Origin: Escherichia coli
GTDB taxonomy: Bacteria; Pseudomonadota; Gammaproteobacteria; Enterobacterales; Enterobacteriaceae
NCBI RefSeq assembly: GCF_030384885.1
Contig: NZ_CP128613.1
Length of the DNA stretch: 64,000 nucleotides
Reading direction: 5' to 3' (one strand)
Shown one piece after another: positions 12,936 to 36,196 of the stretch (position 1 is its first letter; each line of letters opens with the position of its first letter). The notes beneath the pieces were generated by a model. The model worked only from the letters and a program-made list of their open reading frames with translations. It was not told the origin of the DNA and searched no databases. A program made the position numbers and the translations under genes.

Positions 12936-12974
12936 TTAATGTTGGTGTATTGATTACACCAACATTAATTTTCC
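12936..12974 (+). terminator. rho-independent terminator after ykgMO
   Basis: Perfect 14-15 bp stem ATTAATGTTGGTGTA/TACACCAACATTAAT followed by TTTT. Confidence 0.6.
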
Positions 12975-13206
12975 TGGAAATATATTCTTTAAGTTCATTT
13001 AAAGCCAACTGCCTGACGTTTCTCTCTGAATATTCCATTATATTCATGTTGATTTATTGACCAACTTCTCCCCTGTATGCTGGTATCAACTCTCTTTTAG
13101 ACTGAACAAGCCACTCCGCCCCCTCCCTTTGCGGAGCAGCCTGCATTTACACTCAAACTGTTAAGATGATAAATGTGGTAAATCTGTTGGTACTAACATA
13201 AAACGT

Positions 13207-13437
13207 TTACGCCACAGGAACAGCCTGATCCACCGGTAACCCCATCGCCGACGTTCGAGTGCCAGTTAGAGTAACGCGCACAGATGACTGCACGCAGTGC
13301 CCTGTCAAAGAGGCCATCGTTCCTGTGACAGCTGGCAGCCTTCGTTTAACTTCACTTAATTTGGCTCTTGGGGGGCTTACCGAACAGATGACGTAGTCAC
13401 ACCTATTCAATTTTTCACCACTTATTGGAGTAAACAC
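13207..13437 (-). CDS. hypothetical small protein (possibly ykgL)
   Basis: 76-aa ORF between ykgO and ecpR; no recognisable motif; assignment by position only. Confidence 0.3.
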   Translation of the reverse strand: MFTPISGEKLNRCDYVICSVSPPRAKLSEVKRRLPAVTGTMASLTGHCVQSSVRVTLTGTRTSAMGLPVDQAVPVA

Positions 13438-13900
13438 CCATAACCATTTTGTGCGGCATGTTAATCCATTAAAACACCTTATTGATTGTCAAATCCTCTT
13501 TAATGATGGCCAATAATAGTTTTATGTTCTATTTATTATCATTAAAACTTGTTTTTTTACTAGTCGAGCACAAAACGCATTAAGACTATTCCTAACACCT
13601 CAGGGCAAAGTTCCTGGCTAATATAAAATGTAAGTAAGAATTGAACGTTATATTGCCAATAACCTTATGAAACTGAATGTCTTTTTCTTCTTATCAAAAA
13701 AGCAATATTTTCATTTTTAGTAAATATTGACTTAACCATGGAATTCCTTTTCTGTTCACATATTGACACTCATCAGGAAAAAAACATAAATTTAAGCCCA
13801 ATCGAAAATAATTAAAACTTAATCTCGTTTAACCTATATTGATATGTGCTACGTATCTTATTTACTTCCGATTTACTAACAACACTGAATGTACCTGTAA

Positions 13901-14512
<612 letters not shown>

Positions 14513-14586
14513 ACTCCAGGCAAGTTAGTTTTAAAAAATGACTCACAGGGACATCATGTCCTCAATTTAACTCGGGAAGAAAAGCA

Positions 14587-15174
14587 ATGAAAAAAAAGGT
14601 TCTGGCAATAGCTCTGGTAACGGTGTTTACCGGCATGGGTGTGGCGCAGGCTGCTGACGTAACAGCTCAGGCTGTAGCGACATGGTCGGCAACAGCCAAA
14701 AAAGACACCACCAGTAAACTGGTGGTGACGCCACTCGGTAGCCTGGCGTTCCAGTATGCCGAAGGCATTAAAGGCTTTAACTCACAGAAAGGTCTATTTG
14801 ACGTGGCTATTGAGGGTGACTCAACGGCTACCGCCTTTAAACTGACCTCACGTCTTATCACCAACACCTTAACCCAGTTGGATACCTCAGGTTCCACACT
14901 GAATGTGGGCGTGGATTATAACGGCGCGGCAGTCGAAAAAACTGGCGATACCGTGATGATCGATACCGCCAACGGCGTACTGGGCGGCAACCTTAGCCCG
15001 CTGGCTAACGGTTACAATGCCAGCAATCGTACCACCGCACAGGATGGTTTCACCTTCTCCATCATCAGCGGTACCACCAATGGTACCACCGCAGTAACCG
15101 ATTACAGCACTCTACCGGAAGGCATCTGGAGCGGCGACGTTAGCGTACAGTTCGACGCGACCTGGACCAGTTAA
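14587..15174 (+). CDS. ecpA: E. coli common pilus major subunit
   Basis: 195-aa ORF with signal peptide [22 protein letters not shown]; operon context. Confidence 0.9.
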
Positions 15175-22500: not shown

Positions 22501-22730
22501 ATGCAAAACCTGAACACCCTGTGGTATTCCCCTGGCATTATCACTTTCGCGATTAACCAACAGCCAGACCAGCAAACACGCCACTACAGGCACAGCAAAA
22601 TCCATCAGGCTTGCCACACCCCATGCGTGCGGCTCAAAGCCGCCCCGCCATGGCATATTAATCCGCTTACCATTTTCGAACAGCTGATTGGTTTAGTCCG
22701 GTGTTTCCCTGCTTGCACTTAAAAATGAGC

Positions 22731-22820
22731 GGATGGGAAACTCTCGAAATGGTTCGTCGATATGCTCACCTTTCAGTCAGGCATTTCACCGCGCACGCGA
22801 GCAAAATCAAAGGCACATGA
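22731..22820 (+). pseudogene. 3' remnant of a second P4-type integrase gene
   Basis: Encodes ..[14 protein letters not shown].. then stop, matching the C-terminus ([14 protein letters not shown]) of the intact integrase at 34943-36106; lies directly beside the left att copy. Confidence 0.6.
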
Positions 22821-22851
22821 GGAGAATGTGGTTGACTTAAAAACGAGGAAA

Positions 22852-22913
22852 CTTATTGATTTAAATGGTGCCGATAATAGGAGTCGAACCTACGACCTTC
22901 GCATTACGAATTA
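22852..22913. repeat. left 62-bp direct repeat (att copy; duplicates 3' part of tRNA-Thr plus 16 bp)
   Basis: Identical to 36105-36166 by direct comparison. Confidence 0.8.
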
Positions 22914-23351: not shown

Positions 23352-24695
23352 TCATTTCTTTGCCGCGCTTTTATTGCACTTCTTACAGCCTTCAATCAAT
23401 TTTTCAGTTATTATATAATAATAAGGAATGTAAATGTTTAACCCGCAAGTTTTAATCGAATCGAAAGCAAGAACTTTCACAATGGATTCTTCTCCATCTT
23501 TCTCCATTAGCAATATATCACTTAAAGGCAAATCATTAGGATTGTAAATCCTCACATCGCCAGGCTGTCTTTCATAGGCTTCGATGTCATCACCTGGTTG
23601 GCCATAGGCTAAATGAGTGGCTTTAATCCAGTTTATTGGTTCAGCATTTTGACACCAGGAGATTATTTTTTCTAATTTTTCAGGTGTGTAAGCTTTTACA
23701 TAATCTCCATGTTTTTCACATCTACCTAGTTCTGAAAAATGGCCCAGGGTGTATTCATAAGAATAATCACCAGCAGTCAATGGTAGTCTAAAGTATTGCT
23801 GAGGCAATGCCTTCTGGACTTTGGTTTTACTCAGCAAATTAAAGGTGATATCATAAAGTTGATATAGACAAACACCCTCTCGATCTGGATATCCATAAGG
23901 CTTGATGTCAGAAAGCATCTCAATATCAGAATTATAAACACTTGCATAATCATCACTTCCAAACATGAAAAAACCTTTTGATAGAATGAATATTGCATTA
24001 GGAAGAACGTTTTTTTCAAAATTCTGCGAGTGAGTTTTTATTTCTTGTACTATGTCCATCCAATCCATATCAGTATCATAGGCGAAGATAATTCCAAAAC
24101 CATTAGTCTGAATTCTCTCCTCTGAATGTATAAATATGTTCTGATTTATACCATGTTTCTTTAGTTTTTTGAATGAGCGGATATTTTCGAAAGCACTTTT
24201 CAGTTCTTTTTTTGTTAGTTTTGACTTAACCTGAATCACACCATAGCAGTACTCCACAGGTAAAACCTCAAAAATTTCCTGTCGCTGCATAAGCGAAAAT
24301 GAATTAAAAGCATCATAAAAAAGAATGTCGATTTCATTACTGAGATGTCCTGAGGTTGACGCTACACGGACACTTGATTTTGAGATGGCATAGCTTTGCG
24401 GTAAGAGTTTATTTTCATTGAAAAAGCATCTTAAGAGTTCCTCTCTGACAGTACCAACATCTCTTGGATGCTTAATATCTTTCGATATTTCAAAATCTTG
24501 AAGCATTTTCCTCTGTAAGTGAATGAACTCCCTTTCAAGACCATAAAATTCTTTATCTTTAGATCTCAGTTTGCTTGCACGAGAAACTTGATCGGATATC
24601 CATTCCTTTGTGCGAGACTCTCTCTCAGCAAAATCATCACGTTGTTTTTTTACAGCACCGGTCAAGCGTTTTCTTGTGTTTTCATTATCGGACAT
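23352..24695 (-). CDS. hypothetical protein, low GC; possible PD-(D/E)xK / Mrr-like nuclease fold
   Basis: 447-aa ORF; motif ..SNEIDILFYD..(about 25 aa)..YGVIQVKSKL reminiscent of a D...(E/Q)xK nuclease core; AT-rich relative to neighbours; no confident family assignment. Confidence 0.55.
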   Translation of the reverse strand: MSDNENTRKRLTGAVKKQRDDFAERESRTKEWISDQVSRASKLRSKDKEFYGLEREFIHLQRKMLQDFEISKDIKHPRDVGTVREELLRCFFNENKLLPQSYAISKSSVRVASTSGHLSNEIDILFYDAFNSFSLMQRQEIFEVLPVEYCYGVIQVKSKLTKKELKSAFENIRSFKKLKKHGINQNIFIHSEERIQTNGFGIIFAYDTDMDWMDIVQEIKTHSQNFEKNVLPNAIFILSKGFFMFGSDDYASVYNSDIEMLSDIKPYGYPDREGVCLYQLYDITFNLLSKTKVQKALPQQYFRLPLTAGDYSYEYTLGHFSELGRCEKHGDYVKAYTPEKLEKIISWCQNAEPINWIKATHLAYGQPGDDIEAYERQPGDVRIYNPNDLPLSDILLMEKDGEESIVKVLAFDSIKTCGLNIYIPYYYIITEKLIEGCKKCNKSAAKK

Positions 24696-25214: not shown

Positions 25215-25814
25215 TCATTTATCTCCGACCGGAAACTTCTTATACAGTGTCGATACACCAACATCATAGATGATCTCCACCTTCTGGCGAGGAACGCCTG
25301 ATGCAATTAATCGCCCGGCCTGCGCCCTTTGTTCTGGTGTAAGTTTGGGACGACGTCCACCAATTCGTCCCTGTGCGCGAGCAACTTCCAGTCCAGCTTT
25401 TGTTCGTTCAACAATCAGTTCTCGTTCCATTTCAGCCAGGGCACCCATCACATGAAAGAAAAAACGCCCCATCGGTGTGCTGGTATCAATAGCATCCGTC
25501 AGGCTGCGAAAATTAACGCCACGTTCGCGCAACTCCTCAACCAGAATGACCAGATGGACAAGCGTGCCGGGACCGGGTTTATTCAGCGCTTCAATCAGGC
25601 GATCGCGCTGGTCAAAGCAGTCATCTCCCACCACATAAGCTGTGATGGACGGGCGGAAAGTGACTTTTCCCAGATCTTCGGTATAGGGCTTGTCGCGGTT
25701 CGGGTATTCATGTGTTTCCACACGGCGACCGGTTCCCGCACTTTCTTCTTCAACCTTAAACGGCACACCTCGAAATGACGCATCCTGAAGCCTGTCTTTC
25801 CACGTCATATACAC
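25215..25814 (-). pseudogene. chimeric ORF: C-terminal half of a Pin/Gin/Hin-family serine DNA invertase fused to a Mu-N-like (DNA circularisation protein) N-terminus
   Basis: C-terminal about 110 aa (VEELRERG..FRSLTD.IDTSTPMGRFFFHVMGALAEMERELIVERT..GGRRPKLT..) matches invertase C-terminus and HTH; catalytic Ser-containing N-terminus missing; first about 85 aa (WKDRLQDASFRGVPF..GRRVETHEYPNRD..EDLG) resembles phage DNA_circ_N proteins. Confidence 0.6.
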
Positions 25815-25869
25815 TCCGAAAATAAAAAAGCCACCTATTAGAAGGTGGCCTTGTAATGAATTTTATTAA

Positions 25870-26400
25870 TTAGCGAGTCAGAAACAACGAATCTTTATAC
25901 TTTTGCTGTTGTTCATTTAAATACTTAGCTGTTTCATCGCTGGCAAATGGAAATATTACCGTATTTTTAGGCATGGTAATTTCTTTTTTGTCCAGCGTCA
26001 GAGTAAACATAGGAACATACTGAGCAGAGTAACGCACCGCAGAAACGAGCTCTAGTTTAGACTCTTCAATAACACTTAAATTATCCAGGCTAACTTTCTC
26101 TTCATCTTTTTTCTTTGACGCATTTAAAGTTTTTATTACTTTATTTAATTTCTCCTGAAAATCCTCCTTAAAGTTTTCAGGATTGCCGTCGACAACAAGA
26201 ATCTGTTCACCCTGATTATCTGGAAAAATAATCTTTGCACTTATCAATTTATTTTCTTTATAAACATCACCAAGTTTTATGGCTCCTCCAGATAACTGAA
26301 TAATATGTTCATCTTTAAAGGAGATGTTGCCAGAGATTATGAGAGATGAAAAAATAGCCGCTGCTCCAAGAATTACACTTGCTGTGATATAGCCTTTCAT
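25870..26400 (-). CDS. hypothetical membrane-anchored/secreted protein, low GC
   Basis: 176-aa ORF with N-terminal hydrophobic segment MKGYITASVILGAAAIFSSLIISG; Lys/Glu-rich; AT-rich. Confidence 0.5.
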   Translation of the reverse strand: MKGYITASVILGAAAIFSSLIISGNISFKDEHIIQLSGGAIKLGDVYKENKLISAKIIFPDNQGEQILVVDGNPENFKEDFQEKLNKVIKTLNASKKKDEEKVSLDNLSVIEESKLELVSAVRYSAQYVPMFTLTLDKKEITMPKNTVIFPFASDETAKYLNEQQQKYKDSLFLTR

Positions 26401-26491
26401 TTTTCGCCTATTAACATTTTTCTAAATGTGCATTAATTCTATCACTCTATTTATGACTTACAACCAGCAATACATGTGAGGGGAATCCTGG

Positions 26492-27623
26492 CTACCAAAA
26501 TCGGGTATAGCCAACATCGTGATTTATATCAATGCCACTGGAGCGTGTTTCCGTAACCCGCATACCTGGTGGCATATTTATAAATGATACCTTGATCTCA
26601 CCATCAACTTTTGGCGCGGTAGCTTTATTAATCATGAAGGGATTCGGGCCTGTGGCATCGGAGGCGTTGTTTGCCTGAGCCGGATCCACCGCCGGATAAG
26701 GAGTGTATCCCCGTGCCGGTATTCCCGTCTTCGATATTGTTGAAGGTGGCGCGATCGGTGTTCTGCACCATGTGCAACGGCACCCGGAACAGACGACAGA
26801 TTTCTTCAAGCTGAAACTTGCGGGTTTCCAGGAACTGGCTGTCCTCGGCGTTCAGCGCCATCGACTTCCAGTCCAGCCCCATCTCAAGGATCATCGGGCG
26901 GTGAGCATTACCAAGCCCGGTGTGACGCTCCTCAAAATCTTTCTTCAGGCGCTCATAAGCCTGATCCGACAGCGTCTGTTCTGTACGCAACACACCCGAC
27001 GTCACCGCGCCATTGCTGAACAGTCTGGCCCCGTGCTCTTCGGTCGCAGCTGCCAGCGATATTGCCTCACGGGCATAGGCGATGGGATTCAGTCCCACCA
27101 GACCGTCCAGCGTCAGCGTGCGCACATGCCAGATATCCTCCTGGCTCAGTACATCCGTGGAGCCATCCGGGAATGTGACCTGATAGACCGGCTCCCAGCT
27201 ACTGTTAAGCTTCGGTACCACACAGCCGGGATCGACGGGCAGCAGTTCAGCCACTTCGCCAAATGCTTTCACTTTGTAGGCGTAAAAGTTTCCCCGCAGG
27301 CACAGACAGGTGACCACCAGCTCCCAGAACTCCTGCGGCGTCATATAGCCATTGGGATGCGTGGAGATCAGCTTATGCAGACGTTCGCCAGTGGCTCTCT
27401 GCTTCAGGCTGCCGTTCAGGTGATACAGGTTGCAGGGCAACATCCCGACCGACTCCGCCAGCACCCTGACACAGGAAAAAACCGCCGTCAGTCGCATGGC
27501 CCGCTGGCTGCTGATCTGCTTTCCGGTATAGGTGTCGTAGGACAACCCGATGGCATCCGCCAGCTCTGCTGGCGTGGTCACCGGTGCGTCACTTTTTCGT
27601 TGAAATAATCCCGAAAAGAACAC
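26492..27623 (-). pseudogene. phage portal protein (HK97-family), frameshifted and 3'-truncated
   Basis: 331-aa ORF with portal-like N-terminus continues in another frame as a 105-aa ORF (26492-26809); normally followed by protease/capsid genes, which are absent. Confidence 0.6.
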
Positions 27624-30166: not shown

Positions 30167-30517
30167 TTACTTCAGCCGTTCACGGGCCGTCTTCGCCTTA
30201 TGACACGGCCAGCACAAACTCTGCAGATTACTGTCGACATCAGTGCCGCCATGCGATTTAGGGATGATGTGGTCAACGGTCTTCGCCTCACGCACCACAC
30301 CAGCACGCAGACATAACTGACACAGGCCTTTGTCACGCTTCAGGACACGCGCGCGGATACTGTCCCACTTCGAACCGTAGCCGCGCTGATGACGGGATTG
30401 TCCAGGTTTGTATTGCTTCCAGCCTTCGCTTTTGTGGCTTTCGCAGTAGCCTGAAGGGTCCGTGGTTGTAAAGCGGCAGCCGCGAACACGGCAGGCTTTT
30501 GGGGTTCGTGGGGGCAT
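30167..30517 (-). CDS. HNH endonuclease (phage packaging-associated)
   Basis: 116-aa ORF with CxxC...HIIPKSHGG..D..NLQSLCWPCH HNH motif. Confidence 0.85.
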   Translation of the reverse strand: MPPRTPKACRVRGCRFTTTDPSGYCESHKSEGWKQYKPGQSRHQRGYGSKWDSIRARVLKRDKGLCQLCLRAGVVREAKTVDHIIPKSHGGTDVDSNLQSLCWPCHKAKTARERLK

Positions 30518-34942: not shown

Positions 34943-36106
34943 ATGTCACTCTTCCGCAGAAGTGAAATATGGTACGCCAGTTTCACATTGCCGAACGGTA
35001 AAAGATTTAAACAGTCTCTTGGAACAAAGGACAAAAGGCAGGCGACAGAGCTCCATGACAAGCTAAAGGCTGAAGCATGGCGGGTCAGCAAACTTGGTGA
35101 AATACCTGATATGACGTTTGAGGAAGCGTGTGTCAGGTGGCTCGAAGAGAAAGCACATAAGAAATCACTGGACGATGACAAAAGCCGGATCGGATTCTGG
35201 CTTCAACATTTCGCAGGGATGCAACTAAGAGACATCACTGAATCAAAAATTTATTCAGCGATGCAGAAAATGACAAACCGGCGTCATGAGGAAAACTGGA
35301 AACTCAGGGCAGAAGCATGCAGAAAAAAAGGGAAACCTGTTCCAGAATACACGCCAAAACCAGCGTCCGTTGCAACGAAGGCTACGCATCTTTCATTTAT
35401 AAAGGCCCTGCTAAGAGCCGCAGAGCGTGAATGGAAAATGCTGGATAAGGCACCAATTATTAAAGTGCCTCAACCGAAGAATAAACGTATCCGCTGGCTG
35501 GAGCCTCATGAAGCACAAAGGCTGATTGATGAATGTCCGGAGCCATTAAAGTCTGTTGTTGAATTTGCACTGGCAACAGGCTTAAGACGCTCGAACATCA
35601 TCAACCTTGAATGGCAACAAATAGACATGCAGCGCCGGGTGGCATGGATAAACCCGGAAGAGAGTAAATCAAACCGCGCAATTGGCGTTGCGCTGAATGA
35701 TACTGCATGTCGCGTATTGAAAAAACAAATCGGGAATCATCACCGTTGGGTATTTGTATACAAGGAAAGCTGTACCAAACCAGACGGAACGAAAGCGCCA
35801 ACGGTCAGGAAGATGCGGTATGACGCAAACACAGCCTGGAAAGCGGCGCTGAGACGAGCAGGTATTGATGATTTCAGATTTCACGACTTGAGACACACCT
35901 GGGCAAGTTGGCTGGTTCAAGCCGGAGTCCCGTTGTCAGTGTTACAGGAAATGGGAGGCTGGGAGTCTATCGAAATGGTTCGTCGATATGCTCACCTCGC
36001 ACCTAATCACCTTACCGAACATGCACGGCAAATAGACTCGATCCTGAACCCATCGGTCCCAAATTTGTCCCAGTCAAAAAATAAGGAAGGTACTAATGAT
36101 GTGTAA
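34943..36106 (+). CDS. int: tyrosine integrase (P4/DLP12 IntD-like)
   Basis: 387-aa ORF with HDLRHT...YAHL catalytic tail, ending 15 bp before the tRNA 3' end. Confidence 0.9.
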
Positions 36107-36166
36107 CTTATTGATTTAAATGGTGCCGATAATAGGAGTCGAACCTACGACCTTCGCATTACGAAT
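36105..36166. repeat. right 62-bp direct repeat (att copy overlapping tRNA-Thr 3' end)
   Basis: Identical to 22852-22913. Confidence 0.8.
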
Positions 36167-36196
36167 GCGCTGCTCTACCAACTGAGCTATATCGGC
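36121..36196 (-). tRNA. thrW: tRNA-Thr (anticodon CGU)
   Basis: Reverse complement reads GCCGATATAGCTCAGTTGGTAGAGCAGCGCATTCGTAATGCGAAGGTCGTAGGTTCGACTCCTATTATCGGCACCA; cloverleaf-compatible, CCA end. Confidence 0.9.

Follow-up and report, generated by a model that had tools for sequence, protein, structure and literature searches.

The chimeric open reading frame described here lies in a prophage remnant within the window, by which we mean the whole 64,000-nucleotide stretch of Escherichia coli DNA that was analysed. The element spans 13.3 kb between the two copies of a perfect 62-bp direct repeat, the attR copy at 22850..22911 and its partner at 36105-36166, which overlaps tRNA-Thr(CGT) at 36121-36196; an integrase gene adjoins, and the integration site is tRNA-Thr (thrW). 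The gene order, as seen in contigs that are identical at the nucleotide level, reads integrase, NinE, YbcO, RusA, YlcG, Q, lysis genes, Bor, HNH, small and large terminase subunits, followed by the scars. Just outside attR, an 85-nt stretch (22723-22807) shares 73% identity with the integrase gene's 3' end (35949-36033) and appears to have been left by an older element that occupied this tRNA-Thr site.

Two gene remnants on the minus strand mark a scar upstream of the chimera. The 5' part of a portal gene (26728..27623; about 298 of ~408 codons, with PF04860 on residues 47-299) runs directly into the 3' remnant of a tape-measure gene (26492..26729), of which the last ~78 codons are left and whose counterpart in the intact relative L001 occupies 12938-14770; portal homology stops at 26728 and tape-measure homology at 26729, with a 2-nt overlap. 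By joining portal codon ~298 to the tape measure, this second scar has removed all head, connector, sheath and tube genes, and because of it and the 13.3-kb size of the remnant, we conclude that the prophage carrying the chimera is heavily decayed. The adjoining stretch of the window, 25555-26729, matches L001 12001-13175 at 99.8%.

Between the tape-measure remnant and the chimera lies a 176-aa AT-rich gene (25870..26400, minus strand; 32-34% GC) with an N-terminal hydrophobic segment, which many, not all, relatives carry in the gap separating the tape measure from the DNA circularization gene and which had no match in Pfam or PADLOC. With a promoter-like site of its own (26463-26436) and a strong intrinsic terminator (25827..25852, minus strand; a 10-bp stem followed by a T run) that ends it ~20 nt before the chimera start, it looks like a cargo gene expressed in lysogeny. 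No convincing promoter was found between this terminator and the start of the chimera. On the other side, the variable slot downstream of pinE, which holds Avs2, GmrSD or a GIY-YIG protein in relatives, is occupied by a gene for a 447-aa AT-rich DUF6602 protein (23352-24695, minus strand), which in its N-terminal part matches the PADLOC models of PD-(D/E)xK / NucC-like nucleases (E 2e-27) and is thus a candidate defence nuclease; the chimera itself matched no PADLOC model.

The chimeric ORF (25215..25808, minus strand) encodes 197 aa plus stop, and the exact protein is recorded as HBA5946383.1 under the label 'recombinase family protein'. Its native start is the ATG at 25808, preceded by GGAG 5 nt upstream. 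The original prediction had placed the ORF at 25215-25814, and a minus-strand ORF is indeed present there, but its GTG start at 25814 would add two codons, and an exact protein look-up returned no record for this 199-aa form, whereas the 197-aa form is on record. Pfam profiles divide the product into three parts, namely DNA_circ_N (PF07157) on residues 9-87 (E 4e-30), Resolvase (PF00239) on residues 85-150 (E 2e-20) and HTH_7 on residues 153-195 (E 4e-10). The N-terminal part also matches the sequence of PDB 9ki1, 'DNA circularization protein N' (E 1e-7), and the C-terminal part aligns to residues 67-181 of Gin (PDB 3uj3/4m6f; E 1e-49). An N-terminus of about 85 residues resembling the Mu N protein, followed by the C-terminal half and HTH of a Pin-type invertase, had been proposed from the sequence, and this anatomy was borne out: 84/85 N-terminal residues are identical to the 442-aa DNA circularization protein of L002, and 108 of the C-terminal 116 residues match PinE from its residue 69 on. 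Residues 1-85 thus equal DNA circularization protein 1-85, and residues 86-197 equal PinE 73-184, with the His codon at the junction common to both.

Comparison with the intact relatives (L001, NZ_CP098211; L002, NZ_CP104123; L006, NZ_CP063499; L007, NZ_CP128609) showed where the two halves come from. In these prophages one strand carries, in this order, the gene for the DNA circularization protein (442 aa), five baseplate genes, tail-fibre genes, the invertible P segment and, last, pinE. Codons 1-84 of the DNA circularization (Mu N-like) gene are retained in the window at 25557..25808 (minus strand), with 100% nucleotide identity to L001 and 99.6% to L002, and the 3' part of pinE, coding for PinE 73-184 plus stop and comprising alpha-D to the E-helix and HTH_7, lies at 25215..25552 (minus strand); from 25552 downward the window shares 99% identity with the 3' half of pinE in L002 and L006. 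The junction itself was located by alignment at 25553..25556, GATG on the plus strand and CATC on the coding strand, within the shared His85 codon; it had been expected near 25555-25565, an agreement far beyond chance. In a three-way alignment, the junction microhomology measured 4 nt when the L002 allele was the reference and 2 nt with that of L001. In the intact relatives, 6.9-7.3 kb separate the two halves (6,934 bp in L002, with L001 and L006 similar), and in this interval lie the remainder of the tail gene, the genes for baseplate and tail fibres, the P segment flanked by its two crossover sites, and codons 1-72 of pinE. Missing from the chimera are accordingly ~357 residues of the DNA circularization protein (1-85 of 442 kept), and the baseplate genes that follow this gene in L001, L002 and L006 are absent at the locus. 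Collinear flanks on both sides, missing intervening genes, a sharp breakpoint and short microhomology at the junction together identify a deletion scar joining two same-strand genes, as had been proposed.

The same comparison bears on whether the ORF could instead represent a natural two-domain protein family, a reading for which we found no point in favour and whose probability is negligible. Among the best 120 of 3,504 homologues, none carried both PF07157 and PF00239, the 90% cluster of the chimera has six members that are all truncated DNA circularization N-termini, and intact parental genes exist for both sides of the sharp breakpoint; the family reading was therefore refuted. In Mu-like tails, the full-length DNA circularization protein N has ~440-495 aa, and its gene stands after that for the tape measure and before the baseplate genes; of this protein the chimera keeps the conserved N-terminal domain of ~88 residues (PF07157; PDB 9ki1) and lacks the rest.

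The junction is real and inherited within a rare lineage of three to four assemblies. It is nucleotide-identical in at least three E. coli assemblies (GCA_017755465.1, GCA_036346665.1 and SRR18593988), and the identity across these three carriers extends to 100% over 20.6 kb, 100% over 11.9 kb and a single mismatch over 8.9 kb. The two halves stood side by side in 0/5,426 complete E. coli genomes, about half of which hold one half or the other, and a scan of species-representative genomes with the 41-nt junction gave no match. Literature searches gave nothing specific on this chimera. An assembly or sequencing artefact has some precedent, as a number of database 'fusions' are of that kind, e.g., P0229, whose tail LSLIHI is translated Nextera adapter read-through; nevertheless, the same junction in the same 20-kb context recurs in independent NCBI assemblies and in a separate sequencing run, and a k-mer graph misjoin is impossible from an overlap of 2-4 nt, which makes this explanation highly improbable.

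What the deletion removed from the invertase can be read directly from the alignments. The Resolvase match begins only at profile position 79 and covers positions 79-144 of 145, confirming the predicted absence of the catalytic serine region; no part of PinE ahead of residue 72/73 survives, neither the Ser nucleophile nor the DRLGR motif, and the MLIGYVRVST...DRLGRS region displayed by intact PinE sequences is likewise absent. The E-helix and the C-terminal HTH_7 of the DNA-invertase subfamily are present. Compared with the PinE / P-segment system of e14-like prophages, the C-terminal 112 residues remain 93-98% identical to PinE alleles and the chimera likewise adjoins the variable cargo slot downstream of pinE, but residues 1-72 are lost, and with them the Ser nucleophile and Arg cluster; no invertible segment is left, nor either of its crossover sites. 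The crossover sites of L001, L002, L006 and L007 (TTCTCCCAAACCAACGTTTATGAAAA and its partner) fall inside the deleted interval. When these sites were sought in the window with up to 3 mismatches, there was no match, nor was there any match in the window to the core pattern AAACCNNSGTTT. In Gin and Hin, the recombinational enhancer sits in the 5' coding region, and because the 5' part of pinE is deleted, the enhancer, if positioned as in Gin/Hin, would be gone as well.

The retained part of pinE has also changed. Relative to the L001 gene three codons differ, one of them synonymous and the other two giving W148R and A165E (PinE numbering). Among 119 aligned representatives of homologue clusters, 118 have W at position 148, and at position 165 A occurs in 114 and G in the other 5; all other residues of the Pin part are common states. 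Both replacements thus fall at near-invariant HTH positions, which fits relaxed constraint, two changes being too few for a formal selection test. The isolated Hin DNA-binding domain binds hix half-sites, and it is on this ground that the chimera product was thought still able to bind crossover sites without recombining them. The HTH homologous to that 52-residue domain (PDB 1hcr) is kept in the chimera but mutated at two near-invariant positions, as it is relative to Gin of phage Mu (PDB 3uj3, 4m6f). Given these replacements, the loss of the cis sites and of the pinE promoter region, and the terminator upstream, the binding idea, though conceivable in principle, is left unsupported; the search for intact pin genes and gix-like sites proposed along with it yielded no pix-like site and no second pin-like gene within the window.

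These observations also weigh on a related reading, in which the product would be a working, catalytically dead Pin derivative, expressed by read-through, that binds sites or pairs with the invertases of other prophages and so locks or modulates their switches. The ORF is intact and in frame behind a good native RBS, the E-helix and a recognisable HTH_7 are kept, and the promoter-like site of the upstream AT-rich gene could supply some transcript by terminator read-through. Action in trans has a parallel in the paralogue PinQ, which can act on the P segment of another prophage, e14 (PMC12529663). Against it stand the two replacements at near-invariant HTH positions, the terminator upstream combined with the lack of an own promoter, the lack of pix sites within the window, and the restriction to a rare lineage (3-4 assemblies, 0/5,426 complete genomes), and we regard a working derivative as improbable. 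A product that has no catalytic half, a damaged HTH and no promoter of its own is, we infer, without function.

We therefore consider the chimeric ORF to be, very probably, a functionless pseudogene that arose from one illegitimate deletion inside the prophage at tRNA-Thr. This loss of ~6.9 kb, as sized on the closest intact relative, brought codon 85 of the DNA circularization gene up to pinE codon 72/73 through 2-4 nt of microhomology, the in-frame outcome being a matter of chance. Along with the remainder of the tail gene went the genes for baseplate and tail fibres, the P segment including its two 26-bp sites, the sequence preceding pinE and the catalytic portion of the invertase. Deletions anchored at the same site mix in-frame (P0002) and out-of-frame products, the latter with short tails (P0005, P0006), and nothing points to selection for frame. 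Serine invertases use quasi-sites, and a deletion made by Pin itself at a secondary crossover-like site was considered on that account. It is, however, contradicted by the junction sequences: one breakpoint falls within pinE codon 72, away from any crossover site, both flanks are unlike the 26-bp site, and related deletions at a second hotspot (nt ~127 of the DNA circularization gene, see below) end 47-80 nt from the pix core and not within it. This origin was rejected as exceedingly unlikely.

The scar is one of several of its kind. Other deletion fusions in the same prophage family likewise join a DNA circularization N-terminus to a downstream gene via 2-6 nt of microhomology, with the baseplate J C-terminus (P0002/L010), gp46 (P0172), a later part of the same gene by internal deletion (P0005/L008) or a tail fibre (P0006/L009) as partner, and in P0032 a tail-fibre N-terminus is joined to Pin 76-184; among the fusions found, the window chimera is the only join of the DNA circularization gene to pinE. 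The members of its 90% cluster are other truncated DNA circularization N-termini that diverge at the same residue. At the DNA level, three further independent deletions (L008, L009 and L010), in different alleles and prophage contexts, have left ends at most 5 nt from that of the window, and right ends within the same gene (L008), in a tail-fibre gene (L009) and at the end of baseplate J (L010), with 3-6 nt of microhomology at their junctions (CACC, CATCCG, CCATC).

To map left ends more broadly, residues 1-85 were used as a query, which returned 76 short N-terminal fragments, and classification of their tails against an intact prophage gave ~26 distinct junction events. Four of these begin at nt 101-108 of the gene, about 13 at nt 121-132, 2 at nt 236-241, 6 at nt 248-262 and 1 at nt ~302, the window junction (25553-25556) corresponding to nt ~254. 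The stretch from nt 133 to 235 contains none of the ~26 left ends, yet truncations of the frameshift type are scattered across it. The concentration of 13/26 events within one 10-nt window was reached in 0 of 10,000 uniform simulations; all products returned by the protein search were short, a source of bias in the right ends, and no bias was identified that would sharpen the left-end peaks. In a control, the baseplate gpP-like gene, 6/12 events fell at nt 136-141, as reached in 1 of 10,000 simulations. Per genome such events are rare, with broken complete records found by 120-nt probes in 1/1,089 and 6/958 cases. Individual entries call for caution: the heads ending in ...TTDYLQQC (P0020, P0022, P0026) look like a translated sequence that we take to be the end of IS26, joined to pinE at three different codons, and P0007 carries an internal duplication.

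The nt ~127 site could be followed at the DNA level. Two events there (L012/L013 and L014/L015) occurred in alleles that are 3 SNPs apart within 37 nt, and both end in CCCTATA^ (here and below, ^ stands at the joint or cut). In the complete genome L016 (NZ_CP069571) the same position was used as a right end (...CAGACT^ACCGAAG), so that this site of the DNA circularization gene acts as both left and right end. L012/L013 (ERZ28619092, ERR11504306) join codon 42 of the DNA circularization gene to a point ~80 nt inside the P segment, and the remnant keeps one crossover site and an intact pinE, i.e., an invertase without anything to invert.

Several candidate causes of the hotspots were examined and set aside. 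Hairpin-induced slippage is unsupported, as the predicted folding of the DNA circularization gene over its first 375 nt is no stronger than that of shuffled sequences (z -0.63). An excess of downstream matching 5-7-mers does not account for the sites, with counts at or below the gene average, and a YCGR (McrA-like) motif fitted the DNA circularization hotspots but failed at the main hotspot of the control gene. Literature searches for known deletion hotspots gave nothing specific.

A further candidate is encoded by the prophage itself. Next to the terminase genes lies a gene for a zinc-ribbon HNH endonuclease of 116 aa (30167..30517, minus strand), which aligns end to end with the HNH protein of Geobacillus virus E2 (PDB 5h0m; E 5e-12), like N.phiGamma a terminase-associated zinc-ribbon HNH nickase. 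Both of these are reported to be strand-specific nickases that cut CG^GT (= AC^CG), with ACCC/ACTG/ATCG as relaxed sites (PMC3592412). With ACCG/CGGT as published, 22/38 junction events fall in a stretch reaching from 7 nt 5' of a cut to 1 nt 3' of it, such stretches covering 12.6% of the sequence, and with ACCS/SGGT 31/38 events lie near cut positions versus 21.6% coverage; both figures come from a post hoc test with a specificity borrowed from homologues, which may not be that of the E. coli enzyme, and on junction events that are not fully independent of microhomology constraints. In L009 and P0219, which have different left ends, the right end falls at one and the same site, CATCCG^GTGCC. 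The breakpoint of the window fits the relaxed ACCC/TCCG form only (CCAC^CCGA or CCATC^CGA). Site-specific breakage, with the prophage HNH nickase as the candidate enzyme, followed by microhomology-mediated rejoining, is a possible but rather doubtful explanation of the recurrent breakpoints, which may not be random. According to this model, the nickase would nick prophage DNA, and microhomology-mediated rejoining would then yield deletions at recurring sites.

Taken alone, the chimera is an ordinary object of little weight, another in-frame scar left as a prophage decays. Its database label is misleading, since the protein recorded as HBA5946383.1 cannot recombine, and this calls for caution in annotation and in counts of 'recombinases' beside defence islands. 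The pattern of recurrent breakpoints is the one aspect that could carry more weight. If deletion endpoints do recur at nucleotide precision across independent lineages, prophage decay would be partly sequence-directed, and if the HNH nickase were their cause, decay in this family would be partly channelled by a phage-encoded enzyme and not random.
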